This document shows, piece after piece, positions 5,622 through 29,838 of a stretch of 41,322 nucleotides of DNA. The DNA comes from Candidatus Aenigmatarchaeota archaeon (GTDB lineage Archaea > Aenigmatarchaeota > Aenigmatarchaeia > QMZP01), in the NCBI GenBank assembly GCA_017609225.1, contig JAFCEK010000004.1, positions 1 through 41,322 of the forward strand. The letters run 5' to 3'. Position 1 is the first letter of the stretch; each line of letters starts with the position of its first letter. The position numbers were made by a program, and so were the translations under genes. Below the pieces are notes generated by a model that ran no database searches, was not told where the DNA came from, and worked only from the letters and a program-made list of their open reading frames with translations.

Positions 5622-6224
5622 TCATTCCCATATGAACTCATAATCCCTGAATGCCGGTGCTCTGTGGGTTTTTTCCTTGTGATTCCAGTAAAACATCAGC
5701 GCTGCCCCTGTAGCTATGCCTCCAAGATGGCCAAAGTTTGCTATCCCAGGGTCAAGTCCTGTAAGTCCAAGGAAAAGCTCAAGCCCTGCAAAAAATATCA
5801 CTGCAAATCTTGCAGGCAGCGGAATTCCGGGGGGTATGAATATTATGTTTTTTGGATAAAGGAAGCCGTATGCTGTGAGCACCGCAAACACCGCGCCTGA
5901 TGCTCCCAGCATCAGGATTACTGATTCACCTGTAAATGCAATGTAAAGCAGGGATGACCCAATCCCTGACAGCAGGTAAAGGATGATGTACCTTTTCCAT
6001 CCCAGGATTCTCTCAACGCTGACACCAAAAATAAAAAGCACAAACATATTGAGCAGAATATGGCTCATACTGCCGTGCAGAAACATGTAAGTAAAGAACT
6101 GCCAGTAGGCGCCGTACATAGCCAGGACAGGCGTTAAAGCAAAGAATTCCGTGAAGCCGGGAAAGATGCCCTGGAGTATGAAAACCATCACATTAATCAG
6201 AACCAACGCCAGGGTTATTCTCAT
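5622..6224 (-). CDS. rhomboid family intramembrane serine protease (second paralogue)
   Basis: GASGAVFAVL and HLGGIATGA motifs. The track start at 6233 is TTG, so I prefer ATG 6224 (MRITLAL). Confidence 0.85.
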   Translation of the reverse strand: MRITLALVLINVMVFILQGIFPGFTEFFALTPVLAMYGAYWQFFTYMFLHGSMSHILLNMFVLFIFGVSVERILGWKRYIILYLLSGIGSSLLYIAFTGESVILMLGASGAVFAVLTAYGFLYPKNIIFIPPGIPLPARFAVIFFAGLELFLGLTGLDPGIANFGHLGGIATGAALMFYWNHKEKTHRAPAFRDYEFIWE

Positions 6225-11713: not shown

Positions 11714-12532
11714 TTAGCTAAACCTGTATCCCATTCCCTCCAGGATTTTTTTCATTTTCAGTGAGTCCTTCCATGTTACCGGACTCTCTGATATTATCGT
11801 GATATTAAGCCTTCTTTTCAGTATCTCCTTTGCAAATGCCCTGAAATCAGGGCTGTGGTCAAGAACAAGGTGCATCCTTTCTCCCTTGGCTGTATATTCT
11901 ATATTTGAAAAATGGCAGTGTAGATGCTTCAGCTTCAGTGGCTTCAGCCTGTCCAGAACCTCAGCAAAATCAATCTTTCCGTAATTTCTTGCATAGATAT
12001 GCGCAGGGTCAATGCACAGGGAGCATCCTGTTTCCTTTGCAAGCCTTATGGTTTCTTCAAGGCTTCCAAGGGCTGAATGCTTTCCTGTGGTTTCCGGGGA
12101 AAGCAGAACATTCCATTTTTTCTTTTCTATTGTTCTCAGCATATCAAGAATATGCTCCTTTGTTGTCTGATACACATCCTCTTTGTCATTTTTCCCGAAA
12201 TATGCAGGATGGAAAACAACATGCCTGGCACCCATGTAATGCCCTCTCTCGCAGGAATCCAGGATTCTTTTCTTGCTTTCCTCCTGCTTTCTTTTCTCAT
12301 CAGAGGCAAGGTTTATGTAATAGGGGGCATGCACCGAGAGCTCAATGCCTGTTCTTTCCCTTTCCTTTCCTATTTCTCTTGCCAGCCCATTACCCATCTT
12401 CACTCCCCTGACAAATTCAACTTCCATTGCCTGAAGTCCAAGTTCCCTGACCTTTGAAACGCCTTCAAGCGTAGAGTTCGCAGGGGAACCTGCAGGTCCC
12501 AGCTTTATGTCTGCTTTCATGTTATTTTCCAT
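11714..12532 (-). CDS. nfo: endonuclease IV-like AP endonuclease family 2 TIM-barrel protein
   Basis: SVHAPYYINLAS, VVFHPA, PETTG, CIDPAHIY and HLHCHFSN align with the Nfo metal-ligand motifs. Confidence 0.65.
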   Translation of the reverse strand: MENNMKADIKLGPAGSPANSTLEGVSKVRELGLQAMEVEFVRGVKMGNGLAREIGKERERTGIELSVHAPYYINLASDEKRKQEESKKRILDSCERGHYMGARHVVFHPAYFGKNDKEDVYQTTKEHILDMLRTIEKKKWNVLLSPETTGKHSALGSLEETIRLAKETGCSLCIDPAHIYARNYGKIDFAEVLDRLKPLKLKHLHCHFSNIEYTAKGERMHLVLDHSPDFRAFAKEILKRRLNITIISESPVTWKDSLKMKKILEGMGYRFS

Positions 12533-13323
12533 AGTTTCTTTACAAGGCGCAAAGATTCTTTCAGCACATCATTGCCTGTAAAAACCTCCAGGGTTATAGT
12601 GCCATTATAGCCTATTCTTTTGAGTTCCCTTACAACATCTTCATAGTCAATATTTCCCATGCCTAGGGCAAGATGCTCATCTTCCTCTCCATGATTGTCA
12701 TGAATATGTATATGCACGAGCTTTTTCCTGAATCTCCTTATGTATTTTGATATCTCATGCATGCCTCCCACTATAAACGCATGCCCAACATCAAGATGCA
12801 CATAAAGGTTTTTTGTATGCTCTATTATGTACCTGAAGTCATCAAACTCTCTTATCTCTCCCTTACCTGCTGTGTTTTCCAGCATTATCTTTACCCCAAA
12901 CCTTTTGCCGAGCTCCACAAGCTCCTTCATTGATTCAGAAAAATTTTTCAGCAGCTGTTTTTTTGATTTTTTGTTGCGCAGGAACATACCCATTGAATGG
13001 GCATGGAAATTTACAAGTTCTATGCCAAGCTCTGCAGAGGCCCATATTGCCTTCTTTGCCTCATTAAGCCATGCATCCCTTACCCCCTCATGCAGCGCGC
13101 CAAGCTCCATAAACCAGCTTGTATGCGCTATTGCATTCATTCCCTGCTTCTTCAGCAGATTCAGTATTTCCTTTTTCCTTTCAAGAACAATTTCAGGGAA
13201 TCCAAGAGGCCCCTCCATTCCAATTTCCACAAAATCAAACCCAAGTTTTTTTGCAAGCTTTATCTCCTTTAGTATGTCCCTGGTCGGGTTTGTAAGGTAT
13301 CCAAATTCTGGCATATATAACAT
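12517..13323 (-). CDS. xylose isomerase-like TIM-barrel protein (sugar phosphate isomerase/epimerase family)
   Basis: NFHAHS, MLENTAG, HLDVGHAF and HIHIHDN..EDEHLALG motifs. The start is taken at ATG 13323 (alternative 13314). It overlaps the nfo-like gene by 16 nt. Confidence 0.7.
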   Translation of the reverse strand: MLYMPEFGYLTNPTRDILKEIKLAKKLGFDFVEIGMEGPLGFPEIVLERKKEILNLLKKQGMNAIAHTSWFMELGALHEGVRDAWLNEAKKAIWASAELGIELVNFHAHSMGMFLRNKKSKKQLLKNFSESMKELVELGKRFGVKIMLENTAGKGEIREFDDFRYIIEHTKNLYVHLDVGHAFIVGGMHEISKYIRRFRKKLVHIHIHDNHGEEDEHLALGMGNIDYEDVVRELKRIGYNGTITLEVFTGNDVLKESLRLVKKLWKIT

Positions 13324-14046: not shown

Positions 14047-14214
14047 ATTGGTCGCCTGTCTTTTTTTAGCTTTCGTAAAGAGAGGCTTTAACAAGGACAT
14101 GTCAGGGATTAGTAACCGTGGGTTGAATATCTCGCCGAAGCTTGATACTTACGCCCCGGTCCTATCAGCCCGTCGTCTACGGGACCTTCCTCTTCGCACC
14201 GCTAATGGCAGCAG

Positions 14215-14242
14215 AACTGCCTGTTAAATCAGCATTAGCAGT
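14215..14242 (-). repeat. mini-insertion family B copy (degenerate)
   Basis: aactgcctgttaaatcagcattagcagt is similar to the copies at 14556 and 16808. Confidence 0.5.
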
Positions 14243-14555
14243 ATCTGCAGTTGCCTAGCAGTTTGAAGAATGATTGCCTAGTTTTAGGGACGGCTTCAAG
14301 CTTAGTTAGGCCCGGAAGAAATATATATACCTATTCGTTCTGTATTCTTACCTTCTTCTGGTATGCCTTCAGCTTATGGACAGCAGACAACCCGTTAAAC
14401 CAGAGTTATGGCTGTCATGCTATTATCCGTTATGGCGTAGCTACCCGGCGATGCCTATGACAGCAAGACAGCTTATATATAACCAGGGTTGCTGTCAGGC
14501 TGTTTTCACAACCGGTACACCAGAGGCCACGATTCCTCGTTCCTTTTATACCGAG

Positions 14556-14585: not shown

Positions 14586-14856
14586 ATACTCGTTCGTACT
14601 GAAGGAACCTTCCCCTCAGGCATTGTAGGCAGACTTAGGTCAGTATTCAATCGCATTTGACCTAAGTCAAGCTATCTACACCCCCAGCAGATAAAGACCA
14701 TACTGGCTTGTGCCGCGGCTTGGACATTTTTAGAGCTAATTCTAGTCGAATAGCTCTTAAAGACTGCAACATTTGGTGTTGTGTCCAAACCACGTTCGCA
14801 CCGTATTTAACCCAGTTAACGTGGCTCTTTGATGAGTGAACACCTCCACCCTTTCG

Positions 14857-15615
14857 TCAGTTTAAGCGACGAATAAAATTTAAAACATCAATTTGATTCT
14901 TGAATGATTTCCAAATATCCGGTTTCACTTGATATGTTTTTAGTAAAACATCCAAAACCTTGTTTTTTTCATAACCTTTCCAATAAAGACTCTTATCAGA
15001 AACTTTCAAATTGTTTACAAATCTTATTTCCTTGGCAAATTTGTATAAATCATTTTTTGTGTCTATTGCTATTGATGAATCCCATTCTTTTGTATTTATA
15101 TCAAGTTTTTGCTTGAGTAAATTTCTGTAAAATTTTCTCAAACCAGGATGAGAGCATTTTAGTATTACCCTTCTTGTTAATTCCCATTTGTTGAATCTTT
15201 TATGCCATTTTACGCCCAATACAACACCTCCATCAGCTGAAAACATCAATTTAAAGACTTCTTTCAGTTCATTTCTTGTTAATTCTTTAAAGATGTCAAG
15301 CTTTATTTTGGGGTATGTAATTGGATATGTTTGAAGTGATTTTGTTTTCAGTGTATTGCAGAGGTTTACTAAAATTTCTCCGGTTTCTTTAGAGGAATAT
15401 TGTGTAATCTTAACTCCTTTATTATCTATTCTTTCATAGAAATTCTTTAAACCGAATAGTCTTTTCATGAGATTTCTGAAGATTTTATGTAATTCCTCGG
15501 ATTTCCCTGCATATATTATTCTGTAAGTTCTACTTCCAAACCTGACGCTTCCGTCTGTCAATAAAAGTCCTATAAGATTTGCTAAATCCTGTTTATTGAA
15601 ATTTTTTAATTTCAT
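14857..15615 (-). CDS. LAGLIDADG homing endonuclease (double-motif)
   Basis: Motifs LIGLLLTDGSV and FKLMFSADGGV. The ORF lies inside the 23S gene. Confidence 0.9.
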   Translation of the reverse strand: MKLKNFNKQDLANLIGLLLTDGSVRFGSRTYRIIYAGKSEELHKIFRNLMKRLFGLKNFYERIDNKGVKITQYSSKETGEILVNLCNTLKTKSLQTYPITYPKIKLDIFKELTRNELKEVFKLMFSADGGVVLGVKWHKRFNKWELTRRVILKCSHPGLRKFYRNLLKQKLDINTKEWDSSIAIDTKNDLYKFAKEIRFVNNLKVSDKSLYWKGYEKNKVLDVLLKTYQVKPDIWKSFKNQIDVLNFIRRLN

Positions 15616-15728
15616 GTTTTATTTTTAGGGAAGCGGGCTTATCTGATTTTTAGGCGCAAGCCGACCTGCATTAGCAGGTAAAATCAGAATATGCCCGCTG
15701 ATTTTTCCTTACTTGTCGCTTAAACTTT
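14857..15728 (-). other. 23S rRNA intron 1 (about 870 nt) carrying a LAGLIDADG ORF, in domain V
   Basis: A 12-bp terminal helix (agtttaagcgac at 14859-14870 with gtcgcttaaact at 15715-15726) brings the ends together. Flanking exon sequence resumes as ..GGCUCUUCCUGGACGUGCAGCAGCGUCCAAAG and GACGAAAGGGUGGAGGUGUUCACUC. Confidence 0.6.
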
Positions 15729-15786
15729 GGACGCTGCTGCACGTCCAGGAAGAGCCGAACCGACGGCGGAGAAGCATTGTACTGAA

Positions 15787-15816
15787 GACGGCTTCTTTCA
15801 ATCTGCACAAGCCGTC
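15787..15816 (-). repeat. mini-insertion family A copy
   Basis: gacggcttctttcaatctgcacaagccgtc, with terminal stem GACGGC/GCCGTC. Confidence 0.6.
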
Positions 15817-15973
15817 ATACATATGTACGAGGTCGATTTATCCTGCCTCTCTACTAATTCATCCGAACATATAGTTCGCCATTAGCCAATACCTACTTCT
15901 ACCGACGAGAAGTGTGGCGTATGGACTCTCGCCCGCCACGACTCCATTATCCCCAGGATAGCTTTTTCAGACC

Positions 15974-16003
15974 AACGGCTTTTTTCAATCTATCCAAGCC
16001 GTC
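15974..16003 (-). repeat. mini-insertion family A copy
   Basis: aacggcttttttcaatctatccaagccgtc. The loop is homologous to the copy at 15787. Confidence 0.6.
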
Positions 16004-16807
16004 ATGTGTTTTCTGACAGAGCAGGCCCCCATTATCAGCATAACCGCTTTTTAAACCAGTGTAAACGGCCAAGCTATTAATGAGGCACTGCGGATCGCTA
16101 GGCCACGCTTTCGCGTCAGGATTTCTTACTTTCGGAAATCCTATCAGGCTGGCTTTTGCCCTTACACTCTCTTCGAGATTTCTGACCTCGATGAGCCAAC
16201 CTTAGGGCGCTCCTGATATTAAGCGGCTGCTAAAGCTACAAACAGAGGCTTTAGAAGACGTATCTTATTAGGAGCGTACCGCCCCAGTCAAACTACCCAT
16301 CTGCCGCTGTTTCCGGCCGAGGCCGGATGAGCGATAAAGAAACGATAGGTTGGTGTTACACTTACGAGAATGGACAGCTTTTTTCAGTCAATGGAAGCTG
16401 CCATACTTTTCGCATTCCCCAGACCTGACGACCTGGGTTCGGCGCTCCCAACTACTCTATACAACCATTTCTTTATCACAACAACAGACTGTAGTAAAGT
16501 TCCATGGGGTCTTCGAGTGCCTGACTGCTTATTTCATTCATTACAAACAATCTGGCTTTCTCGTCCCGCTGAGGGTCTCCTGAGTATGCACAGGACAGTT
16601 AATTTCACTGGGTATCAGCCCGAGACAGTGGGGATCTCGTTAAGCCATTGATGCAGGCCGACAATTTCGACCAGAAAGACGACTTTCATATGCTAGAACA
16701 AGTCGTCAAACTGATAATCGGCAAGGGATTGCGCAACGGCTTTCTTCATCCTTTTTGTCAGATGACCGTCATTACGCTACCTTAAGACGGTCAGAGTCTG
16801 CGGCACA

Positions 16808-16835
16808 GACTGCCTTTAAACCAATGTTAGCAGTC
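16808..16835 (-). repeat. mini-insertion family B copy
   Basis: gactgcctttaaaccaatgttagcagtc. Confidence 0.6.
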
Positions 16836-18007
16836 ATGTGATACCGCCGGCGTTTATCAGGGCTTCATCCGGTTGAATCCGGACTTAACACACTGACACT
16901 GGCCAGGCCTCAAGAGCCATACAAGGCATTTCTGCTTAGCGGCTCCCTAAGTTTTTATTAAACAGTCGGACCCCCCTTGTTACTGAGACCTACCCTTCCC
17001 AACTTAGTCAGGAGAGTAGGCATCCCTTCTACCAAAGATACAGGACCAATTTGCCGAATTCCTTGGGCTGATTTCTCCCATTCACCTTCCCCCTAAAGGC
17101 CAATACAGCCTAACGGCTGGTTCTGGCTGTCTGACTTTCTCAGGGAGGGCACCATTCGCCGAAACCTTTCCCTTTTACATATTTCTTTCCAGAGATTTTT
17201 GAGAAAGGTTTAGTGACGGTTCTCGGTACGGATGAAAGAAATCCTTACCAGTTCCCTTTGTGCAGAACAACAGCCTGCGCTATTGAATCGGCTGTCATAA
17301 CCTTTTCACGGGTTCCAGGAATCAACCAAACCTCCTAAGGGAGGCCCTCACAACTTCACCTGTTTTGAGGCCCACGGCATTTATTCAGTAAACCAATGCC
17401 GGAAGCTTTCTCGCCATTATGGCACTCCACAGGCTTGATTGCTAGGATACAGCGAACTGTACAAGGTCTATCCCGAAACGTCAGGAACTGGTCCTGCGTT
17501 GCCGCACGTATTCTTTCAGGGCAGGAATATTAACCTGCTTCCCTTTCGGCAAACTCCATTCCTAAACCAACTGCTAGTTGCATTAACAGTGGGTTTGTTA
17601 GGGTTTGCCTTAGGACCGCCTTAGGCTGGCAATAGGAATTTATTTACTCTGGTAACATAAGCTTCCTAGAGCCATTAACCCTCAGCTGAATCGACCAGAA
17701 GCGACATATAAAAATAGTCGCCATGCTGTTAATCGTTGCTGAGGAACCCTGGCCCTGTACCTTCAAAGACGGCTTTGTTCAGCCAGCGTTAGCCGTCAAT
17801 TGATTTAGGTGGCTGAGATTTTCACCCAGCTTTCGCTGCTACTATCAACAAGATTCTTGTTTTCATGAGGTCTACCCGAACTCACATTCAGGCTTCTGCC
17901 CCCATGAAACACCTCCCTACAATATTCCGGACACAGTCCGGAATTCAGGGTCTCGGTAGCGCATTTAGTCCCATCCATTCTCAAGGCTCCCAACCTCGGC
18001 GGGTGAG

Positions 18008-18634
18008 CTATTTTGCGGCCAAGATGCCGATTTTTCTTTTTTTGGAGGGATTGAAAATTGGTATATTTTTTATGAAATTTTTATTGTCTTTTTTTGATAC
18101 CCTAAGAACAAATCTTGGATAATTCCCATTTTTATTTTTATATATTCCAACATTTCCTGAGCTTATATTTAATTTCCTAAGAAGCCTTTTTATATCATTT
18201 AAAGGTGGACATTCTAAACCATTCCAGGACAGATGAAATCTTATCTGATGTGTTCTTATATCAAATCCACCCTCAGCATCCCAAAAACCGCCTATGTACC
18301 ATTTAATAATTTCTTTATTTCCCGTATCCATTAAAATCTTCGGGGTTTTCCAGGTAATTTGTGATTTCAATGGATGATCAAATTCTTTCTGTATTTGTAT
18401 TGCTATTTTTTTGGAGTAAATTCTTAGATATGGCGTTCCTTTTCTAGGTTTACAAAATATTTGATTTCCGCTGAACGTTTTTTTCAATAGTTTTGATAAA
18501 AAATTCAGCCATTTTGTGTCTTTACTGTAGAAAGTTATATAATGGTGAATTTTTCCTTGTTTGTCACTATATCTAAGAACTGAACCATCTCTAAGTGCTC
18601 CAAGCAAATAGGCCAAATTTTTGGTGAGCTCCAT
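18008..18634 (-). CDS. LAGLIDADG homing endonuclease (double-motif)
   Basis: Motifs LAYLLGALRDGSV and IGGFWDAEGGF. The stop TAG is formed by the first exon nucleotides (UAGCUCAC). Confidence 0.9.
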   Translation of the reverse strand: MELTKNLAYLLGALRDGSVLRYSDKQGKIHHYITFYSKDTKWLNFLSKLLKKTFSGNQIFCKPRKGTPYLRIYSKKIAIQIQKEFDHPLKSQITWKTPKILMDTGNKEIIKWYIGGFWDAEGGFDIRTHQIRFHLSWNGLECPPLNDIKRLLRKLNISSGNVGIYKNKNGNYPRFVLRVSKKDNKNFIKNIPIFNPSKKRKIGILAAK

Positions 18635-18679
18635 AGTACTATTTTATTTGATTACTTAAATGTTTAACGGCATCCTGAC
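18011..18679 (-). other. 23S rRNA intron 2 (about 670 nt) carrying a LAGLIDADG ORF, in domain II
   Basis: It splits ..GCAGCCAUCAUAUAAUGAGUGCGUAA | UAGCUCACCCGCCGAGG (compare E. coli AGCGUAAUAGCUCACUGG). The ends carry an inverted repeat, ggatgccg/cggcatc. Confidence 0.6.
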
Positions 18680-18988
18680 TTACGCACTCATTATATGATG
18701 GCTGCCTCTAAGCCAACGTTCCCGCTGTCTGAGGTTGAAAACGCTTTTCCTCACTTAATACGCAATCCTAAAACGACTGCTAAAACTGTTGCAAGTCTGC
18801 TTTGCTAACAAAGCAGTCCTTTCACTGAATTAGCAGACGCTTTTTTAGGGACCTTAACCCTGATCTGGGTTTTCACCCTTTCGGAAAACGAGCTTACCCC
18901 GTTTCCGCACTCCCAGCTTCTGTGATGGTAAGGTATTCAGAGTTTGACAAGGCAACTGGGGAATGAGAGCTTGACGGCTTAAAATAAT

Positions 18989-19099
18989 GTTGCCTCCGTG
19001 TATCCGCCTACTAAAGCCGGCGGTTTTCTTGGCGAGGCAACAGCTGTTGAACCAGAACCATACATCCACTGTTTGAAAACAATGGTTTTCTGGTTCAAC
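18989..19099 (-). mobile_element. 111-nt structured insertion element, copy B (in 23S), flanked by ATAAT direct repeats at 18984-18988 and 19100-19104
   Basis: About 90% identical to 10710-10822, in the same orientation relative to the host transcript. It is nested in the loop of a GACGGCTT...AAGCCGTC mini-insertion (18973-19118). Confidence 0.8.
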
Positions 19100-20507
19100 A
19101 TAATTTATGCAAGCCGTCGGAGCCTTTTCTCCCCTTGGTTACCTAATCAGTAGCTCTACCCCCTTACCTGTCTCAGCTGAGGCTGAACTTAGGTTCATTT
19201 CGGGAGGAACCAGCTATCACCCCACTCGATTAGCCTCAAAACCAGCTGCTCCTGCTGTCTGGTGCAAGCAGCATGGTATTTTTACCCCTAGTCCCAGGTC
19301 ACGCAAGCGATTTGCCCACCGGCTGCCAATGCTTGGCTTTAGCAGCCGGTTTTGAATCTCAGCAATGCTTCGGGCCTCCATCCCGGTTTCCCGGGACTTC
19401 ACCCTGCCCAGGACTAGATCGTGGGGTTTCGGGTCTCATCCCTGTGACTCGGGCGCTTTCACACCCAACCGCCTTGCCGAAGCTGCGCGGTCTTTGCTTT
19501 CGCTACGACTGGTTTCCTTAGTCTCGCCACAGAAATGAACTCCTTGTCGCGTGTTTCAAAACGGACGATATAACCCGACAACCGGCTCTCGTACCAGGCC
19601 CTTGCGGGCTTTCCTTGAACCGGATTTCTGCAGGCCATATCTACCTGTAGCTGCATGGTTTCAGGTTCTTTTAATGTCGCAAAGCGATATTGCTGACACA
19701 GCTCGTAAACTATCGCTTTCCGATTTCATCTCCTGTTAAGGATGCTTTTCAGCTTTCCCTCACGGTACTAGTGCGCTATCGGACTCAAATTATATTTAGG
19801 ATTGGGAGTTATTGTCTCCCGTATTCCTGCTGGATATCCGACCAGCAGTACTCTGGCACTTAGTAAGGTTGCCTGATTACAGTCACAACAAATTCTTTAT
19901 GACTATAACTATTTGGCCTTACTAAGTGATACATGGTATCATCCTTCTTCCGTTCTCCTACGGGGCTGTCACCCTCTATGGCACTGCTTTCCAGCAGACC
20001 TCGGATTGGGAAGTTAGGAAGAGCCCAGTTCCAAACCCCACATCCGCACAGGCTTTCGCCAGCGCGTTCGGTTTGTCCTGTTCCCTTTTCGGTCGCCCCT
20101 ACTAAGGGAATCGCAATACATAACCATTAAATGGCTATGTACTGTTTTGCTTTCTTTTCCTGCGGTTACTAAGATGTTTCAGTTCACCGCGTGCTCGCTT
20201 GCTGATGCAAGCGTCCAAAAGGACGGGAAGTCCTATCCGAACTGACTGCTAATATTACGAAGTTTTATCTGTATTAGAAGTCAGTTATTCGGTAATCCCG
20301 GGTTCAATGCATGCCTGCGGCTACCCCGGGCTTACTGCAGCTTGCCACAACCTTAAAGAGCAAGACAGCCAACTGGAGTTAATTGCATAGTAACCCAAGC
20401 TGTCATGCCTTTCTTCGATATTTGAGCCAAGCCATCCACCATACAGCCTTGCTGTCCTTATAACTAACCCCTGCCTTACTCAGTTTGTAAAGAAAGGGTT
20501 TTTTGTC

Positions 20508-20521
20508 AGGATAACCCGCCT
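20508..20521 (-). other. 5' strand of putative pre-23S processing helix
   Basis: Complementary to 14033-14046. Confidence 0.4.
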
Positions 20522-20955
20522 ATGAATATCATATGAAAGAGCCCTTTGCAGTCATCTGCAAAGTTGTCATTTGGTGTTCTCAGCATTCACCGCCTCTGGG
20601 CAAGGCTCATACTGGGACAGTAATAATGCACAAGACCACTATTCCAGCAAACTATCAGCTTGCTATTTAAGTGGCCAGGCGCTTCAATCATCCACAGCTC
20701 CTTCTCATATCCTTCCACCATCTGAAATGGTGAAGTTCATATGCAGTGCATACAGTGAGCATTACAATATTGAACTTCAACTGCCCAGAATCAGAACTCC
20801 ATATAGAGTTTGTTTTGGAATCGCTTCCTAGCTGCTAACCACACATTCTGCCACAATGCATGACCGACTCTGAACAGCTGTTGCCTCTGATAAGCGTTTG
20901 CACGCTGTCAGACCGCTAAACAGGTGTTAACGGCCTGTAAGGAACCTTTGTTGAA

Positions 20956-21103
20956 TGGACTGGGTGGGATGCCCATACCAATCTTGGCTGGTTCCTTTCA
21001 GGTTAAGATTGGTATTTTGAACCCACGGCCTCTGCCTTGCAAGGGCAGCGATCTTTAATGGCACCCGGCAGTCACAGGGAAACCACCACTGATCTACCAG
21101 CCC
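20956..21103 (-). tRNA. tRNA-Ala(UGC) in the 16S-23S spacer, with two non-canonical introns
   Basis: Exons assemble to GGGCUGG UA GAUC AGUGGU..AAA GAUC G CUGCC CUUGCAA GGCAG AGGCC GUGGG UUCAAAU CCCAC CCAGUCC A. The G3:U70 Ala identity pair is present. There is a D-loop intron at about 21057-21084 and a 59/60 intron at 20970-21015 with an 11-bp internal stem. Confidence 0.85.
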
Positions 21104-21160
21104 GTAAAAGGGTTTAGACCATCTGATACAGCCAGTATAGTGGTCATACCTTTGGTATTA

Positions 21161-21175
21161 TGTGGTTATTGAGAC
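21161..21175 (-). other. 3' strand of putative pre-16S processing helix
   Basis: tgtgg-ttattgagac pairs with gtctcaataa-ttt-ccaca at 24595-24612, giving 15 bp with one 3-nt bulge. The two strands bracket the 16S gene. Confidence 0.45.
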
Positions 21176-21194
21176 TTAAATATTTAAGGTTTAT

Positions 21195-21237
<43 letters not shown>

Positions 21238-21809
21238 TATCGGACAACGAGATGATTATAGATTCTCCTGAATGGTTTGTGTGTTGCACTTTTATGTCAT
21301 TCTATAGCAAAGCTATAGTCATATTGCCCATCTCGCCGTCTTACGACTTAGCCCACCTTGCAGAACCATGACTTGATCTCACCAAAATGGTGAGAGCTCG
21401 CCAAAACTGCAGACCGGCTGCTAATACCATCAAGCAGTTTTTGCTTGTTTTAGCAGTCAGTTTTCCACTCGGTTGGCTTGACGGGCAGTGTGTGCAAGGA
21501 GCAGGAACATATTCGCCGCTAGATTCCACAGATAGACCGCTTAGAACAAAAAATGCAGTCAACCTATGATGACCAGCGACTATTCCCCAGAAAGACTGCT
21601 TTGCCAAATCAGAATCAGCAGTCAATCTACTAGGGATTTCGGCTTCATGAGGGCGGGTTACAGCCCTCAATCTGGACTGGGGTTGGTTTTGAGGATTAGC
21701 TTCCCTTTCTGCGAAGCAGGCAGCCTGAACAATCATTATAAGCTGCCATGTCTTTCAGGGTCGCATCCCATTCCACAGCAAGATGGCTTTGTTTAGCCGG
21801 AATTAGCCG

Positions 21810-22520
21810 TCATGCTTTTGTACCAACCATTGTAGGCCGCGTCTGGACCCAAATTGGCAAATTTTGGGCTTTCCTGATTTTATCAGGGTGATTAAATCCG
21901 ACATTCTCCAAGTATTTTTTGACTTTTTTAAATCCAATAATTTGAAAACCAAACATGTTTTTATATTTCCAGATGCTTGGATTTACCCCAAATCTTTGCA
22001 ATAGTTTGACAATATCATCTCTTATAATTTTATTTGAAACATGGAATCCAATTCTTGGATATGTATAAGTTTTATTGGTTCGTTTAACCTTTTTGATAGT
22101 TATCCAACCTTCTGAATCCATCCATCCTCTTAAATATTCTTTTATTGTATCATTTGATGAACTGAAGATTGGTTTCGGCGTCTTCATAAAAAAGGTCTTA
22201 TCTTTTGTTGGAATTTGTAATTTTTTGTAAATTTCAACGGCTTGTTTTGAGCAAAGTCTTGTCCTGTAAGTTATTTTTCCTTTCTTTGTTTTCAAACTAG
22301 AAATCACTATCCTGCCTTGAAATAATTTCTCTAATCTTGGTTTAATTATTTTTTGATGGAACTCAAGGCATTTGTCAGTTATTGAAATCCTATATTCTCT
22401 TGATTTTGGATTTTCTGTAATTGCTCCATCACCACCAATAAGACCTATTGTATATGCAAAGATTGGAGTAATTGCGGTTTCGGTTTCGTTTTTATCAAAT
22501 TTTAATTTCATTTGAATCAC
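21810..22520 (-). CDS. LAGLIDADG homing endonuclease (double-motif)
   Basis: Motifs AYTIGLIGGDGAI and LRGWMDSEGWI. The last roughly 14 codons read through into 16S exon sequence. Confidence 0.9.
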   Translation of the reverse strand: MIQMKLKFDKNETETAITPIFAYTIGLIGGDGAITENPKSREYRISITDKCLEFHQKIIKPRLEKLFQGRIVISSLKTKKGKITYRTRLCSKQAVEIYKKLQIPTKDKTFFMKTPKPIFSSSNDTIKEYLRGWMDSEGWITIKKVKRTNKTYTYPRIGFHVSNKIIRDDIVKLLQRFGVNPSIWKYKNMFGFQIIGFKKVKKYLENVGFNHPDKIRKAQNLPIWVQTRPTMVGTKA

Positions 22521-22705
22521 CGATTAAGCTAGCAAATTTTCCCCTGTTCTTTTATGTATTGATTTTGGAAGATAAAAGAACAATAGGGATGGGCTGTATT
22601 GGGCGATTCAATATGCTGGTGTTTAAAACGAAACCGTTTACCCATTTGCCAATCTGGTGTATCCCAGCGGATTCAGAGCATTGCCGATCTTCACTGATAT
22701 AATCA
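21851..22705 (-). other. 16S rRNA intron (about 855 nt) carrying a LAGLIDADG ORF, just 5' of the GGGCUACACGCG..CUACAAUGG block (around E. coli position 1200-1215)
   Basis: Upstream exon is ..GACGGCAGGUCCGUAAAUCUUUAC and downstream exon is GGGUCCAGACGCGGCCUACAAUGG. The boundaries are approximate. Confidence 0.5.
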
Positions 22706-24141
22706 GTAAAGATTTACGGACCTGCCGTCGACCGCTCCTTCCTCTGGCTCATCGCCAGCGGTCCCCTATGAGTACTGGACCTCAAAAGAAGCCCGTGGTA
22801 ACATAGGGCGCGGGTCTTGTTCGTTACGACACTTAAGTCGACACCTTTACCGAAACCTTTTCTTCGGCTTTTCGCTAAAAAGGCTTTCACGGCACGAACT
22901 CTATCGTCCTGAAAGGACTCAGCTTCTGAAAGTTCCTTTCAAGATGACGACGGCCATGCACCACCTCTCAGCTTGTTTGGTAAGACCATCAGCCTGACCT
23001 TCAGTTCAGGTTGACTGCCAATGCAGTGTGCAGTCTGCTATGATAACACAGCAGTCTTATAACCGCATCAGCAGACAAACTTTCTGCTGTCGCCGCTGGT
23101 AAGGTTAAAGGCCGACTGCTAAGACAATACACGAACTGCTTTAATACCAAGCAGTCCCTTAGCCGTTTTAGCAGTCAGACTTTCCTCGCGTTGAATCGAA
23201 TTAAACCGCAGCCTCCACCCCTTGTGTGCTCCCCCGCCAATTCCCTTAAGTTTGATGCCTTAGGCATAACTCTCCGGCTATGCTGAAGATTCATCCTTGC
23301 GAACGTACTCCCCAGGTGGCCCGCTTAACGGTTTTCCTAGGACTCTGGCAACCCCCTTAAGATTGCCAATGTCTAGCGGGCATTGTATCCGCAGACTGAC
23401 GACTATATATAAGTCGTCTGTCTTTTACGGCTGGGACTACGCGGGTATCTAATCCGCTTCGCTCCCCCAGCTTTCATCCCTCACCGTCAGATCCGTTCTA
23501 GTCGAGCGCCTTCGCCACTCGCCTGAAAAGAGCTGTCTGGCTTGTTTCCGGTAAATCATGCAGCTCAAATCATCAGGCGGTCTTCCAGGGATTATAAGAA
23601 TATAAGCCTGTTCTTTTCTTCCCCTAAAGGGTTTCTTTAGAAAAGAGGGCTTTTTACCCTTACCCCTGGAATACCCTCGACCTCTCCCGGTCTCAAGTCC
23701 TGCAGTATCCCCAACAAGCTCCATAGTTAGCTATGGAATTTCATTAGGAACTTGCAGGACCGGCTACGAATGCTTCAAACCCAATAAAAATGGTCACCAC
23801 TTGCGGCGCGGGTATTACCGCGGCGGCTGGCACCCGTTTGGTAGCCCTGCTGCTTATATAACGATTCAAGCAGTTAAGGACTCTTACCCACCGCTTATTC
23901 GCTGAGCTTTTTGGACTCAGCAAAAGCTCCCTCAAAAAATGAGAAAGCACTCCAAATCCCTCCATCACGCTTTTACACCACCCCGGCTTTGTTTTCATTA
24001 TAACATATTGCATCTATCAAGCCGAAAGTGCTCGCGCATTGTGGAATTTTCGCGCTTGCTGCGCCCCGTAGGACCTGGATTCATGTCTCAGAATCCAACT
24101 CCGGGCTTCCTCTCTCAAGGCCCGTACTGAATCTATAGCAC

Positions 24142-24171
24142 AACTGCTTATTTCAATCTGCCAAAGCAGCC
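24142..24171 (-). repeat. mini-insertion family A-like copy in 16S
   Basis: aactgcttatttcaatctgccaaagcagcc shares the ttcaatct loop core with the 23S copies. Confidence 0.5.
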
Positions 24172-24442
24172 ATGTTTTATAGCCTCGCCAGGAATGTAAA
24201 AGAACAGCCCATTCAATATATACGGGCTGTATGCTCTCTTTACCCTGGCAACAAGCTAATCAGCCGCAGTCTTATCCTTGGGCGCCGAAGCTTTGGGTAA
24301 TAAAACATTCCAGTATTTATTACCTGTCTGGTATTAGCCCCAGTTTCCCGGGAATGGACAGAAAGACGGCATTATACAATTAAAAGCCGTCAGACTTTTA
24401 TCCCAGACCCAAGGGCAAATTAACTACGTGTATCCAGCAGAA

Positions 24443-24471
24443 GACAGCCTGTTCAATCAAAAAAAACCGTC
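24443..24471 (-). repeat. mini-insertion family A-like copy in 16S
   Basis: gacagcctgttcaatcaaaaaaaaccgtc. Confidence 0.45.
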
Positions 24472-24594
24472 ATCTGTTACTGAGCGATTCGCCGAGCTTG
24501 CGCTCTGACTTGCATAGCTTAGTCGGATTCGGATAGCAGTGACCTCCGGCGGGATCAACCGGAATTTGTGGCGGGTTTGTCCTCCTTAGAAGGA

Positions 24595-25496: not shown

Positions 25497-26222
25497 ATGA
25501 AAATCGGAATAAAGATATACAGGCCCGAAAGGGATTATCTGAACAGAATCCTGAAGCATGTGGATTTTATAGAGGTTATGGCTGTTGAGGGGGAAAGCTA
25601 CAGGCTTCTTGAGGGAATTGATATCCCTTTTGTAATACATATGGAGCATTATAATTTTGGTGTGAATCCTGCAAACCCTTCCCTGGAAAAGAGGAACAGG
25701 AAGGCACTGGATTTTGCCTTGTCCCTGGCGGACAGGCTCAACTCGGAAACTGTGATAATGCATCCCGGATTTCTGGAAAACAAAAACTGCTCTGAATCCC
25801 ATTCATTAGATTTCATAAGAAACATCCTGGACAGCAGGATAATTGTTGAAAACATGCCCTGCAGGTCGCTGGGCATTGGCTTAAGGATTCTTGCCAGCAC
25901 ACCAGAGGATATGAAAAGAATGATGAAAGAAACAGGCAAGGGCTTCTGCTTTGACTTTGGCCATGCAGGCGCTGCTGCATGCTTCCTGAAGAAAGACCAT
26001 GTAAAATTTGCAGGGGAATTCATGAAGCTGAAGCCAAGGCATTTCCATGTTTCTGATGGAAAAACAAATATTCCAAAGGATATGCACCTGCATCTTGGCG
26101 ATGGCAACCTGAACCTTGCAGCATTCAGAAGAATGCTGCCAAAAAATGCATGGGTCACGGTGGAAACAGGAAAGGAAAGCATTGAGAAGCAGATAAGGGA
26201 TATTGAATTTATGAGGGGTTAA
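25497..26222 (+). CDS. xylose isomerase-like / AP endonuclease 2 family TIM-barrel protein
   Basis: VIHMEH, VIMHPGF, IVENMP, CFDFGHA and HFHVSDG motifs. Its 3' end overlaps the convergent sigma gene by 14 nt. Confidence 0.65.
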
Positions 26223-27264
26223 CGGCTTCTGATGGCTGGAAATCTATAAACCCTTTCAGCTTTCCTGCTCTTTCAGGATGCCTCAGCCTTTCCAGCGCCT
26301 TTATCTCTATCTGCCTTATCCTCTCTCTTGAAAGGCCAAAAATTTCTCCTATTTCTTTTAATGTGTATCTTTCCCCTGTATAACAGCCATCATCACCAAA
26401 GGTGAGGCCGTATCTGAGCCTTATTATCATTTCCTCCATTGGGCTGAGTGTAGGCAAAATGCCTTCTATGGTCTCTCGGGTCATGTTTCCATGCGCTTCT
26501 TCTGGTGGACTTGGAGATTTTTTATTTTCAACAAACTCGCCGAATGGGGACTCATCATCTCCTCCATGCATATCCAAGTTTATAGGATGTTTCATTATTC
26601 TTCTTAATCCCGCTACTTCACTTACAGGTATTCCCATCTCTCTTGCGATGTTCTCATCAGTTGCTCTGCCCTCCACAGCCAGTTCCCTTTCAGTTCTTCT
26701 TAACATGAAAAATTTTTCTATTATATGAGAAGGTATCCTTACTGTTCTTGCATTGTCTGATAATGCCTTGGTAATTGCATTCCATATCCAGTGTGCAGCA
26801 TATGTGCTGAATTTGTATCCTGTTTCCGGCTTGTATCTCTCCACTGCCAGGATAAGGCCTGTATTTCCCTCAGCTATAAGGTCAAGAAAATCCAGTCCTT
26901 TGCCTCTGTATTTTTTTGCTATTGAAACCACAAGCCTTTGGTTTGATTCTATCATTACTTTGTAAAAAATTTCATATTCATCAAACAATTCCCTGATGTT
27001 ATCATATGCCTCAAGGAAATGTTCGGGAAAATCCCCCAAATCCGGAAGCAGTTTTTTGTATAGTTCCATGGCTTCCTGCATATCTTTTAATTGCCTGCAT
27101 CCTTTTAGCGAATCAGCATAAGAGCCAAATTCCGGGTCATTATAAATCATGCGGAGAAGCATGGATGTTGGATTGAAATCTTCCATTAAACCCCTTAGTT
27201 CTTTCTGGCTTTTCTTTATTTCTTTCCTTTTCTTCTTTGCTCTTTCTGTATCTCCACTCTCCAA
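26209..27264 (-). CDS. bacterial-type RNA polymerase sigma-70 family protein, regions 2-4 (the frame is open upstream to 27390)
   Basis: Close to RpoD across its length. Region 2: [61 protein letters not shown]. Region 3 start: [13 protein letters not shown]. Region 4.2: [31 protein letters not shown]. The track start is TTG. Confidence 0.85.
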
Positions 27265-27347
27265 GCTTTTCAGATAATCCCTGATGCCCTCCCTGCCGGC
27301 TTTTATTAACTTTCTGCCTTCTTCCGCCTTTTCGCCTGACCTGCCTC

Positions 27348-27704
27348 TTATTTCTCCCCATTCTTTGAACCATGATTGCCAAGTGCAGCATCAATTATCC
27401 TTTCATCAACATATCCTATAACAAGCATATGACTGTAAATTTTATCCAGCAGTTTTTGCATTTCCTGCGTATAAAGAATCTCTTCCTCACATGTAAGGAG
27501 AGGATGGCTGCATGCTGTTCTTAAATAAAATCCTATATCATCTTCTTTTCCTCTTCTTTTTTTAAGTTCCATGTCTGTTTCTGGAGGCTCTTCGTCAGGA
27601 GGATATTTTCCTCCTGGATTTCCCATTCCTATTTTTAATAAAGCAGAAAAAATATTTTCATCTTCTTCCCCATTATAATCAGGCAATGTGCTTTTTTCCG
27701 GCAT
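27348..27704 (-). CDS. sigma-70 N-terminal fragment (acidic region plus region 1.2)
   Basis: [29 protein letters not shown] aligns with sigma-70 region 1.2 (DPVRMYLREMG..PLLTREEE..LAKRI). It ends at a stop inside the open upstream part of the regions 2-4 frame. Confidence 0.65.
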
Positions 27705-27763
27705 AGTTAATTTTTGCTCATAAAATTTATTAAGGCCATTGTGTTTTGGTTTGTAAAAACTAT

Positions 27764-28582
27764 TTATATGGTTTCAGCTTGGACCTTTTCAACAAATTCC
27801 AAAACTTTGAATAATAGATATCCTTCCTTTCCATTTGTTCCGGTAACAGGATTACCAAGAATTTTTTTATATTTTGCTATTTTTGCCATGGTTACTCCTT
27901 TTTCTCCATATTTTTCTAATATATCTTCTACACTTAAAACTTCTTCTTTTGCTACTGGTCTTGATACTACTGGTTTATGTTCTCTTTCATCAGGCATTGC
28001 TGGAGGGTTTGCTTCTGGTTGTTGATTTAATAATTTCTTGGCTATTCTTCTGAGTTTTTCCACGTCTTCTTTTCTAACCCTGTATCCTCTGGTCCTTCCC
28101 TTTTCTATCAATCCGGATGCTTCAGGGTGTTCTAATAGTCGTTCTAATATTCCTGGTTTGGTATACCGACGTGAAACATGGGATAATGGTATATAATCTC
28201 CCGGCTCATGATCTTTAGAGATGCCCTGCTCTCCAGGATTTACAACAGCAACAATTCTATTGGTTCTGGTATATTCGGGTTCTCTGCCTGATTCGCAGGC
28301 ATGCGGTCCATCAGCAAGCATCAGGTGTTCAGGGGTTAAACCTTCAGGCAAAACATTTTCAATTTCATCTGGACCCATCCCAAAAAAATCATTAAGAGCA
28401 GGTATTTCTTCCGTGTATTTTCCCATTTTTTCCAGTTTTTCTTCAGGGGTTAAATTAGAAGATAGAATTCCATAAATCTCCAATAAAGCAGCCTTAAGAA
28501 GGTTTTCTCCATATTTTCCTTTTAGTTCTCCATAAATGCCTTTGCCTTTTCCTTCTACCTCCAGACCACCAAACTTTCCCAT
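27764..28582 (-). CDS. hypothetical protein with two excisionase/MerR-like HTH-type modules
   Basis: Two segments end in G(Y)xxRxxDVEKL-like strings typical of excisionase-family HTH domains: HVSRRYTKPGILERLLEHPEASGLIEKGRTRGYRVRKEDVEKL and VTMAKIAKYKKILGNPVTGTNGKEGYLLFKVLEFVEKV. The assignment is tentative. The start is taken at ATG 28582. Confidence 0.45.
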   Translation of the reverse strand: MGKFGGLEVEGKGKGIYGELKGKYGENLLKAALLEIYGILSSNLTPEEKLEKMGKYTEEIPALNDFFGMGPDEIENVLPEGLTPEHLMLADGPHACESGREPEYTRTNRIVAVVNPGEQGISKDHEPGDYIPLSHVSRRYTKPGILERLLEHPEASGLIEKGRTRGYRVRKEDVEKLRRIAKKLLNQQPEANPPAMPDEREHKPVVSRPVAKEEVLSVEDILEKYGEKGVTMAKIAKYKKILGNPVTGTNGKEGYLLFKVLEFVEKVQAETI

Positions 28583-28665
28583 CAAGTCCCCCCAGGTTTT
28601 TATTTGTTCATTGTGAAAATATTAATTATGTTTTGTTCCATTTTTTGTCCCCTGATATTCCAGAA

Positions 28666-29838
28666 CTAATCCTTCAGGAACCTCGGCACAAGCCTTCTTG
28701 CCTTTTCTCTTTTTTTTCTGTGCTCCTCAAGAAATTCGTTTATCTTTTCAATTGCTATCTGCTTCAGCTCGCCTGTGAGCATTCTGCCTGAGCTGTACTC
28801 ATCCCTTATTTTTTTTATCTTCCTGTCATCCGGCTCAAACATGAAGTAAAGCATCTGGTAGGCAACATCAACATCCGGATTGCCTCCATGCTTTCTGTGC
28901 TCCTCTATTGAGTTGCCACCCCCGGAGAATGCATATTTCATTATCTTTTCCTTTACGGTTTTCGGGCCATCTGTCAGGGCAATGTATGAATAGGGGTCAG
29001 AGGAGCTCATCTTGCCTCCCTTAAGGCCCGGCATGAACTCATGGTAAAAGGAGCTTGGGGGAATGAAATCAAACTCCCTGTTGCCTTTCATCCTTGATGC
29101 AATGTCCCTGGTAAGCCTTATGTGGGGGTCCTGGTCCACCCCAACAGGAACCACAACAGGGCATGCCCCCTCAAACTCCGGGAGCTGCGGGTGCAGGATG
29201 TCAGCAACCTGTGTGAAAACAGAAACAATCTTGCCGGGTGAGAGTTCCCCGTATATTGCCTTCATCTCGTTCATGGTTGTTCTGTTTGAAACCATACCTA
29301 TTAGTCTGTAATAGGCATTGGACCTTTCCGGGTCATTGGAGCGCTGGCTCTGGAAATAGAAATCGCAGTTTTTCGGCTTCAGGCCCAGCGCAATATAGTT
29401 TATCAGATACTCCTCTATTGCTGTTTTCCTGAGCTGCTCAAGGGGCTGGTTCCTCATATTGTATGCCTCAATATCAGCCACGCAGACATAGGTTCTGGCC
29501 CCCTGCTCCTGGAGATAGATTATCTCATCAGCAACCATCTTGTGGCCTATATGGAATTTGCCTGAAGGCATCAGGCCTGTAAGCATCACAAACTTTTTTT
29601 TCTTTCTGATTGCATCAGCAACCCTTCCGAAATCCCTGTGTCCGAATATTATGCCTCTTCTCATCTGGAGCATTGGGCTGGAGATTCTGCTAAGCATGGA
29701 TCCAAAGTCCTCTATTCCGAACTCTTCCCTGATTTTCTGGTAGTCCTTTACCTTTATGTCCTGGCTCCATGGGTCTATTTTTTCAGGCATAGCATCACTT
29801 AATATTTGTATCGGCTGGTTATATTTTTGCCTGTGCAT
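28666..29838 (-). CDS. trpS: tryptophanyl-tRNA synthetase (archaeal/eukaryotic type)
   Basis: Class I motifs: HIGH-like GKFHIGH and KMSKS-like KMSSS. Overall TrpRS similarity. Confidence 0.9.
   Translation of the reverse strand: MHRQKYNQPIQILSDAMPEKIDPWSQDIKVKDYQKIREEFGIEDFGSMLSRISSPMLQMRRGIIFGHRDFGRVADAIRKKKKFVMLTGLMPSGKFHIGHKMVADEIIYLQEQGARTYVCVADIEAYNMRNQPLEQLRKTAIEEYLINYIALGLKPKNCDFYFQSQRSNDPERSNAYYRLIGMVSNRTTMNEMKAIYGELSPGKIVSVFTQVADILHPQLPEFEGACPVVVPVGVDQDPHIRLTRDIASRMKGNREFDFIPPSSFYHEFMPGLKGGKMSSSDPYSYIALTDGPKTVKEKIMKYAFSGGGNSIEEHRKHGGNPDVDVAYQMLYFMFEPDDRKIKKIRDEYSSGRMLTGELKQIAIEKINEFLEEHRKKREKARRLVPRFLKD

Follow-up and report, generated by a model that had tools for sequence, protein, structure and literature searches.

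Archaea start transcription with TBP, TFB and TFE, and we know of no partner for a bacterial sigma factor in these organisms. What, then, is a bacterial primary-type sigma-70 gene doing on the chromosome of an archaeon, and is it still a gene at all? This question is raised by the stretch of DNA analyzed here, 41,322 nucleotides (nt) of contig JAFCEK010000004.1 from a Candidatus Aenigmatarchaeota archaeon (termed the window, to which all coordinates refer), in which two open reading frames (ORFs), designated as ORF1 and ORF2, together encode a sigma factor between trpS and the 16S-23S ribosomal RNA (rRNA) operon. Judged from its sequence, the locus genuinely descends from a bacterial sigma-70 gene of group 1 (RpoD/SigA-type), and with an ORFan gene directly upstream it forms an insertion, specific to this lineage, in the hypervariable trpS-16S spacer of a DPANN chromosome. 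The reading that we prefer, with slightly better than even confidence, is that the sigma gene is recently integrated cargo now being lost, i.e., a very young pseudogene. To the question of what the sigma-70 genes scattered through the DPANN archaea do, raised by Castelle et al. (2021, PMC8204110), the present locus contributes a clean, synteny-anchored case of sigma entry by insertion into a variable hotspot beside the rRNA operon.

Descent, interruption and divergence of the gene

Profile searches were carried out against Pfam (with its gathering scores), NCBIfam, PADLOC and PHROG, and against Rfam for RNAs. An earlier note on this DNA had described two adjacent minus-strand ORFs bearing the motifs of a primary-type sigma-70 factor; both ORFs and the quoted motifs were found where it had placed them, and the group-1 assignment was borne out by regions 2, 3 and 4, which all exceed their Pfam gathering scores (Table 1), and by the comparison with solved structures, in which SigA/RpoD gave the best matches (190-212 bits, best E 1.5e-61), ahead of RpoS (143) and RpoH (87). 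The RpoD models were also ranked first in NCBIfam, yet under their cut-offs (270 versus 555 for NF004208; 251 versus 354 for TIGR02393, RpoD_Cterm). Region 4 carries a 7-residue insertion (GDDGCYTGE) ahead of its helix-turn-helix (HTH).

When the two ORFs are joined, a product of 499 amino acids (aa) is obtained, open throughout apart from one frame change, which was aligned end to end by BLASTP with the 543-aa bacterial RpoD P0002 (35% identity, 98% of the query). Besides region 1.2 and regions 2-4, this alignment takes in the final helix of region 1.1 and a non-conserved region (NCR) whose length matches as well. On a custom RpoD profile, for which 98 full-length bacterial RpoDs were used, residues 45-105 of ORF1 fall at positions 86-146 and residues 93-384 of the ORF2 frame at positions 260-548, with an unaligned middle of 113 positions versus ~95 residues; from this ordered placement it follows that ORF1 and ORF2 represent the two colinear parts of a single rpoD-type gene. 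Contrary to the earlier note, the architecture is incomplete, for besides the interrupted frame its N-terminal part is reduced. ORF1 alone gives no Pfam match at E<=0.01; region 1.2 remains under its gathering score, a weak match that aligns with DPVRMYLTQMGEIPLLTREQEI of P0002 at the colinear position; and region 1.1 (PF03979) gives no Pfam match even at E<=10, its last helix being the only part aligned by BLASTP. The in-frame sequence upstream of ORF1 meets a stop ~23 codons before the ATG, and therefore no further region 1.1 is encoded.

The interruption itself can be placed narrowly. ORF1 ends with a TAA at 27350-27348, and three-frame translations put regions 2-4 in the -1 frame relative to it; on these translations, a single -1 frame change, equal to a 1-nt deletion versus the intact ancestor, must lie within the short zone in which both frames are open (Table 1). 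The junction AALGN/QSWFKEW is similar to the bacterial VSVGELPFDR in the alignment with P0002. No slippery heptamer of the X XXY YYZ type occurs in this overlap zone, so the frameshift is probably not programmed, and programmed -1 frameshifting was rejected as an explanation. No other split gene was seen among the ~33 genes of the window, which argues against a generally error-prone assembly. The first starts in the ORF2 frame are a TTG at 27264 and an ATG at 27186, and the gene-caller product is the 325-aa protein P0001. The spacer upstream of ORF1 lacks a Shine-Dalgarno sequence, the same as the leaderless-type native genes of the window, and its TATA-like box could be a chance occurrence in an A/T-rich spacer.

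The sigma has diverged far from every protein that was compared with it. Among 5.8 billion proteins, the window's own gene alone scores above 245 bits; it is followed by 119 bacterial primary sigmas in a flat series of 245-221 bits, with ~35-53% identity to bacterial RpoDs and no protein above ~53%, and no close relative was present in IMG/VR or in the metagenome contigs of the Joint Genome Institute. Like the RpoD/SigA proteins, of which the best named matches belong to Planctomycetota (Gemmataceae, Pirellulaceae, Isosphaera), the window sigma has the end of region 1.1, a degenerate region 1.2, NCR and regions 2, 3 and 4 in colinear order, an NCR length similar to that of ~550-aa planctomycete-type proteins, the sigma4.2 HTH with identical -35 residues, and a largely kept sigma2.1/2.2 motif. 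It differs from them in its low identity, 35% overall, ~51% in regions 2-4 (mean 50.6% to the best matches, which are 77% identical to each other) and ~19% to bacterial RpoD in region 1.2 plus NCR, in falling under the NCBIfam equivalog cut-offs, and in being located in an archaeal genome and away from dnaG, the neighbour of P0004. The gene contexts of P0002, adjoined by enolase and thioredoxin genes, and of the near match P0004, in a dnaG-rpoD arrangement beside flagellin genes, are ordinary bacterial ones. A crude neighbour-joining tree, which has no support values, makes the window sigma the long-branch sister of Planctomycetota RpoDs; the placement of the donor is based on this tree, nine named Planctomycetota matches and one Acidobacteriota match.

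At 65 columns conserved in >=95% of 239 bacterial sigmas, the window sigma departs 13-14 times, whereas the bacterial sigmas depart 0.65 times on average and 10 times at most. The substitutions of WW by HW and of RQ by WN noticed earlier are real and correspond to W433H, R436W and Q437N in the Escherichia coli numbering, which is consistent with the solved-structure comparison; the canonical -10/-12 residues are lost with them, and Q406A and 10 more near-invariant positions are altered as well. Among the kept residues are L402, D403, E407, N409, Y430, W434, T440, H455 and E458, together with all the -35 readers (R584, E585, R586, R588 and Q589). The description of the gene as well preserved had to be given up in view of these altered positions, the broken frame, the truncated region 1.1 and the sub-threshold region 1.2.

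Simulation of neutral substitutions on the joined coding sequence provided a measure of how such changes could have accumulated. Drift that changes ~20% of residues (observed 13/65) corresponds to ~0.1 substitutions/site and leaves ~6 in-frame stops, with P(0 stops) ~0.002-0.004; at ~11% changed, the lower 95% bound, and ~0.05 substitutions/site, there are ~3 stops and P(0 stops) is ~0.035. The joined sigma coding sequence contains no in-frame stop and one frameshift only, and therefore its non-canonical residues arose while the ORF was kept open. To go by these simulations, neutral decay alone cannot be sufficient for the altered near-invariant residues, and the frame break would consequently be recent relative to the divergence of the sigma. 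That the ORF stayed open while its melting residues changed means that, at some stage of its history, it was under a selection that had nothing to do with canonical sigma function.

Table 1. Coordinates of the sigma locus and its surroundings in the window
Feature	Coordinates	Strand	Description
ORF1	27348..27704	-	118 aa, ATG to TAA; acidic N-terminus, last helix of region 1.1, degenerate region 1.2, start of NCR
Degenerate region 1.2	27450..27530	-	PF00140, 15 bits versus gathering 22, E=0.025; residues 59-85 of joined protein
Frame-overlap zone	27348..27390	-	ORF1 frame and ORF2 frame both open, 43 nt
ORF2 frame	26209..27390	-	393 open codons; rest of NCR and regions 2, 3 and 4
Sigma-70 region 2 (2.1-2.4)	26743..26955	-	PF04542, 70.3 bits versus gathering 24, E=1.2e-19, profile 1-71 of 71
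H-W-I-W-N codons	26779..26793	-	replace near-invariant W433-W434-I-R436-Q437; melting, -12 recognition
Sigma-70 region 3	26500..26706	-	PF04539, 40.4 bits versus gathering 25.3, E=3.2e-10
Sigma-70 region 4 with 4.2 HTH	26278..26457	-	PF04545, 65 bits versus gathering 24.1, E=4.2e-18
Spacer upstream of ORF1	27705..27763	-	59 nt; A/T-rich TATA-like box (TTAATAAATTTTAT) ~20-33 nt before ATG
ORFan gene	27764..28585	-	273 aa; co-directional, directly upstream of ORF1 (59 nt)
trpS	28666..29838	-	archaeal, NCBIfam TrpRS; upstream syntenic anchor
AP_endonuc_2 gene	25497..26222	+	xylose-isomerase-like triosephosphate isomerase (TIM) barrel; convergent; third-position GC 0.496, host-like
16S rRNA gene	21196..24565	-	Rfam RF01959, archaeal, complete; first of 16S-23S operon; downstream syntenic anchor
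23S rRNA gene	15630..20463	-	Rfam, archaeal, complete

Insertion beside the rRNA operon and other DPANN sigma genes

The gene had been described as co-directional with trpS and surrounded by archaeal genes on both sides, which is upheld by the archaeal rRNA genes and by the NCBIfam archaeal markers of the window (aIF-2beta, L14e, RadB, fibrillarin, ATP-dependent DNA ligase, archaeal-type TrpRS/TyrRS and PorA). A TrpRS scan of one genome per GTDB species yielded 80 DPANN loci (labelled L002, L064 and so on), including the relatives compared here. The closest TrpRS relatives, 63-76% identical, are metagenome-assembled genomes (MAGs) of Candidatus Aenigmatarchaeota, and in Aenigmatarchaeota relatives the order fibrillarin - DHH protein - AMMECR1 - radB - tyrS - trpS is kept; trpS is then followed by the 16S-23S operon in the same orientation in L002, L004, L012 and L022-L025, among others. 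In the relatives 0.6-3.3 kb separate trpS from the 16S gene, versus 4.1 kb here, and their spacers carry unrelated cargo such as a DEDD-type exonuclease, LAGLIDADG ORFs and transporters. The trpS-rRNA spacer is a variable-cargo hotspot across Aenigmatarchaeota (L003, L004, L005, L007, L008, L012 and L022-L025). Neither the sigma gene nor the ORFan occurs in the 79 other DPANN trpS loci, where the only sigma is an unrelated one in L064. As to the cargo of the relatives, the DEDD-type exonuclease (MIVVDIETTGMEP...) is conserved in the spacer of L003 and L022-L025, while L012 and L024 have LAGLIDADG-like ORFs there, and L005 and L008 have membrane proteins or a transporter.

The composition, said earlier not to be visibly foreign, proved to be atypical when the GC content at third codon positions (GC3) was computed. 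Versus 0.466 +/- 0.055 for the 28 other genes of the window, GC3 is 0.229 in ORF1 and 0.231 in the ORFan (z=-4.3 for each) and 0.386 in ORF2 (z=-1.4), with 0.34 in region 2 and 0.30 in region 3. The ORFan probably belongs to one inserted cassette with the sigma gene. Neither 5.8 billion proteins nor 1.84 billion cluster representatives include a homologue of it, and it has no Pfam, NCBIfam, PHROG or PADLOC match; its single-sequence AlphaFold model, with a pLDDT confidence score of 52.5, is too poor for a fold search. ORFans without homologues are typical of mobile and viral dark matter. For its residues ~131-187 there is a weak prediction of the order strand-helix-helix-helix-strand-helix, a fold that may belong to a DNA binder of the winged-helix or excisionase-like type, at a confidence too low for an assignment.

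Because GC3 has not been adjusted to the host value, a recent arrival is suggested. The cassette would have come from a low-GC donor, in which the sigma would already have evolved for a long time under non-canonical constraints; candidate donors are another DPANN archaeon and a DPANN mobile element or virus. The unadjusted composition also makes it probable that the ORF-preserving selection took place in the donor and not here. No integrase or transposase and no convincing flanking direct or inverted repeats were found in the window, and no viral homologues were found in PHROG, the phage records or IMG/VR. An origin from phage was rejected, as the phage sigma records, partly host-derived, are no closer than the cellular sigmas; they show 44-47% identity over regions 2-4, and there are no phage genes nearby. 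The PHROG 351 and MzaA profiles do match from region 1.2 to region 4 (225 bits for phrog_351, 247 for the NCBIfam MzaA model and 158 for the PADLOC MzaA model); assignment to the MZA anti-phage system was nevertheless rejected, with 247 bits versus a cut-off of 800, generic sigma similarity and no MzaB-E nearby. Among the neighbours of the sigma gene PADLOC gave no significant match, the TIM-barrel gene being weakly similar to PDC-M70B (E=0.005).

Sigma genes in DPANN archaea have been reported before. Castelle et al. (2021, PMC8204110) described sigma-70-class genes (fam00359) that are particularly prevalent in Woesearchaeota, ruled out mis-binning and reported only archaeal TBP, TFB and TFE alongside these genes, without any anti-sigma factors; they called the mechanism unclear. 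As a phenomenon, DPANN sigma genes were thus known before, and the window gene is a further, disrupted member of a reported oddity; as regards the novelty implied by the earlier note, the sigma gene in an archaeon is real, whereas the precedence belongs to that report, and no literature report specific to an Aenigmatarchaeota sigma-70 was found. Like the genes of Castelle and colleagues, the window gene is of the sigma-70 class, lies on a contig with DPANN archaeal markers and has no anti-sigma factor nearby. Whereas they are described as most prevalent in Woesearchaeota, it belongs to an Aenigmatarchaeota-related genome, and it is long with an NCR, frameshifted, compositionally foreign and a singleton.

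The sigma gene of L064, a Woesearchaeota MAG (CAYFGV010000001.1, 11126-11956), starts 31 nt past the trpS stop and encodes an intact 276-aa sigma-70, in which regions 1.2, 2 and 4 are over the Pfam thresholds and region 3, with 23.7 bits, is just under its gathering score of 25.3. It keeps WWIRQ, departs at 11 of the 65 near-invariant positions and is native in composition (GC3 0.152 versus 0.186 +/- 0.034 for its own locus). This protein is 35% identical to the window sigma and groups with different bacterial sigmas; used as a query, it returned bacterial RpoDs alone, at ~41% identity, and yielded no DPANN clade. These relationships suggest that the two sigmas are independent acquisitions from different bacterial sources, and their common position beside trpS may be a coincidence or an insertion preference. 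Intact, compositionally native copies like that of L064 are better suited to the question of function than the disrupted window copy without orthologues.

Weighing of the possible functions

The lack of an obvious partner, pointed out by the earlier note, is confirmed within the window: Pfam and NCBIfam scans of the 41 kb revealed neither a bacterial RNA polymerase (RNAP) core gene nor an anti-sigma gene. Neither TTGACA (25 versus 25.4 expected) nor sigma70-type promoters (30 versus 30.5 expected) are enriched in the window. Owing to these negative findings, the truncated region 1.1, the replacement of W433, R436 and Q437 and the broken frame, a canonical role is not credible. Of the roles that had been proposed, that of a mobile or viral remnant fits best and that of a DNA-binding regulator is possible, while no support was found for an effector acting on a bacterial RNAP.

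That the sigma gene is recently integrated cargo in the course of being lost is opposed by several observations. The ATG at 27186 in ORF2 has a weak Shine-Dalgarno-like AAGGGG 5 nt upstream, and ORF1 carries its archaeal-style TATA-like box; an error of assembly or consensus, or a variant present in a minority, may account for the frameshift. The kept core-binding residues (L402, D403, E407 and N409), extended -10 residues (H455 and E458) and -35 residues fit continued selection, and some archaeal sigma genes appear to be maintained, to go by their recurrence in DPANN archaea and by the intact, native copy of L064. Finally, the name of mobile element is drawn from the composition, the ORFan neighbour and the hotspot location, and is accompanied by no integrase, repeats or viral homologues.

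If any activity were left in the disrupted gene, it would come from the ORF2 product, which comprises part of the NCR and sigma2-sigma3-sigma4. Devoid of the autoinhibitory region 1.1 and with an intact sigma4.2, this product could, by analogy, bind -35-like DNA unaided as an ordinary HTH regulator; Dombroski et al. reportedly found in 1992/1993 that N-terminally truncated sigma70 binds promoter DNA without core. Provided that sigma4.2 alone were used, it would resemble the archaeal stand-alone HTH regulators (Tfx, LuxR-type and HTH_10 proteins) in being a core-independent HTH binder, whereas those possess a region-4-like domain only and the window protein has full sigma2, sigma3 and sigma4 and RpoD ancestry. 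A census of archaeal LuxR/sigma-region-4 domains has been published (PMC5413776).

The rival that survives best, possible yet in our estimate rather doubtful, is a functional, neofunctionalised gene, which presupposes either an assembly error at the frameshift or expression of ORF2 alone. Its protein would be a DNA-binding regulator acting through sigma4.2, with a remodelled sigma2, or would dock on the clamp coiled-coil of the archaeal RNAP. This coiled-coil is homologous to the beta-prime clamp helices that are bound by sigma2. The ORF that stayed open while near-invariant residues changed is in keeping with such a history, as are the retention of the -35 HTH residues and most sigma2.2 core-binding residues, the loss of autoinhibitory region 1.1, the recurrence of sigma-70 in DPANN archaea with the intact, compositionally native copy of L064 and, weakly, the archaeal-type upstream signals. 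The broken reading frame, however, stands against it, and so does the fact that the gene is a singleton, missing at the syntenic site in all close relatives and without an orthologue in the 5.8 billion proteins; the window shows no excess of TTGACA or sigma70-type sites, and the composition is unadjusted to the host, the ORF-preserving selection having probably taken place in the donor.

A more specific version, which we regard as unlikely, is that an RpoD descendant was retooled in DPANN archaea or their mobile elements, either as a core-free binder of promoter-type DNA, its autoinhibitory region 1.1 lost, its -35 reading kept and its melting residues replaced, or as a factor for docking to the clamp of the archaeal RNAP. 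The frameshift would here be an assembly error or a tolerated split, and, if true, this would be the first sigma-derived regulation inside a TBP/TFB system.

It is very improbable that the gene encodes an effector, or a factor of a mobile element or virus, that redirects the core RNAP of a bacterial partner or host in the manner of phage sigma factors. The mostly kept core-binding residues, the intact -35 recognition residues and the foreign-looking cassette paired with an ORFan would suit such a factor; against this, W433, R436 and Q437, needed for open-complex formation, are replaced, the gene is frameshifted, neither a signal peptide nor the context of a secretion system was noticed in the window, and cellular RpoDs are at least as close as any homologue from phages or IMG/VR. 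As far as is known, those hosts of DPANN archaea that have been characterised are other archaea, which also disfavours a bacterial target.

A bacterial fragment mis-joined into an archaeal contig, by chimeric assembly or contamination, was a concern of the earlier note and is extremely unlikely. The composition is atypical over 27.3-28.6 kb, as it would be in such a fragment. Both flanks, however, lie in the conserved Aenigmatarchaeota gene order, tyrS-trpS and then the 16S-23S operon, and a chimera would thus need two exact mis-joins in one spacer; at its 3' end the sigma gene, with its stop codon, overlaps the host-like AP_endonuc_2 gene by 14 nt. No bacterial protein is more than ~53% identical to the sigma and the neighbouring ORFan matches nothing, and therefore a co-assembled ordinary bacterium is not the source. 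Least credible of all is a canonical sigma for a bacterial-type RNAP core encoded elsewhere in the same genome, at which the group-1 architecture is the only hint, whereas the informational context of the window is purely archaeal, the RpoD models of NCBIfam are not reached (270 versus 555; 251 versus 354), key melting residues are replaced, and only archaeal TBP, TFB and TFE are reported beside DPANN sigmas (Castelle et al. 2021, PMC8204110).

Other features of the window

The rRNA operon (14857-24565, minus strand) is heavily interrupted. The 16S gene spans 3.37 kb versus a 1478-nt model (610 bits) and the 23S gene 4.83 kb versus a 2987-nt model (1299 bits), and large insertions hold three low-GC LAGLIDADG ORFs (GC3 ~0.26), at 21810-22511 in the 16S gene, at 18008-18634 in the 23S gene and at 14857-15615 in the region of the 23S 3' end. 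The 16S gene additionally has at least 6 extra insertions of 60-155 nt versus the relatives L004 and L012. Past the annotated end of the 23S gene, the non-coding blocks 14109-14312 and 14796-14853 show 78-93% identity in L004, L012 and L024. Since block 14796-14853 directly adjoins the 23S block 15727-15782 in L012, the 23S gene probably continues across the LAGLIDADG insertion, past its Rfam end at 15630. Neither a 5S rRNA nor a tRNA was detected in the window.

Downstream of the rRNA operon lies a candidate archaeal RNase P RNA (RF00373, 13556-13878, minus strand), a full-length match of 65.9 bits versus a gathering score of 84 (E=1.7e-17), which was missed at the gathering threshold, probably as it is divergent in a DPANN lineage. 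Three distantly related AP_endonuc_2 TIM-barrel genes flank the rRNA/RNase P region, within 11714-13323 and at 25497-26222, and the copy beside the sigma gene is 22% identical to that at 11714-12532. The window also contains two rhomboid protease paralogues (2245-2973 and 5622-6224). In the trpS scan, the trpS of L075 (10016-11084 of the Aenigmatarchaeota MAG WVZE01000038.1) matches as two overlapping pieces in different frames, which suggests a frameshift or an assembly indel.

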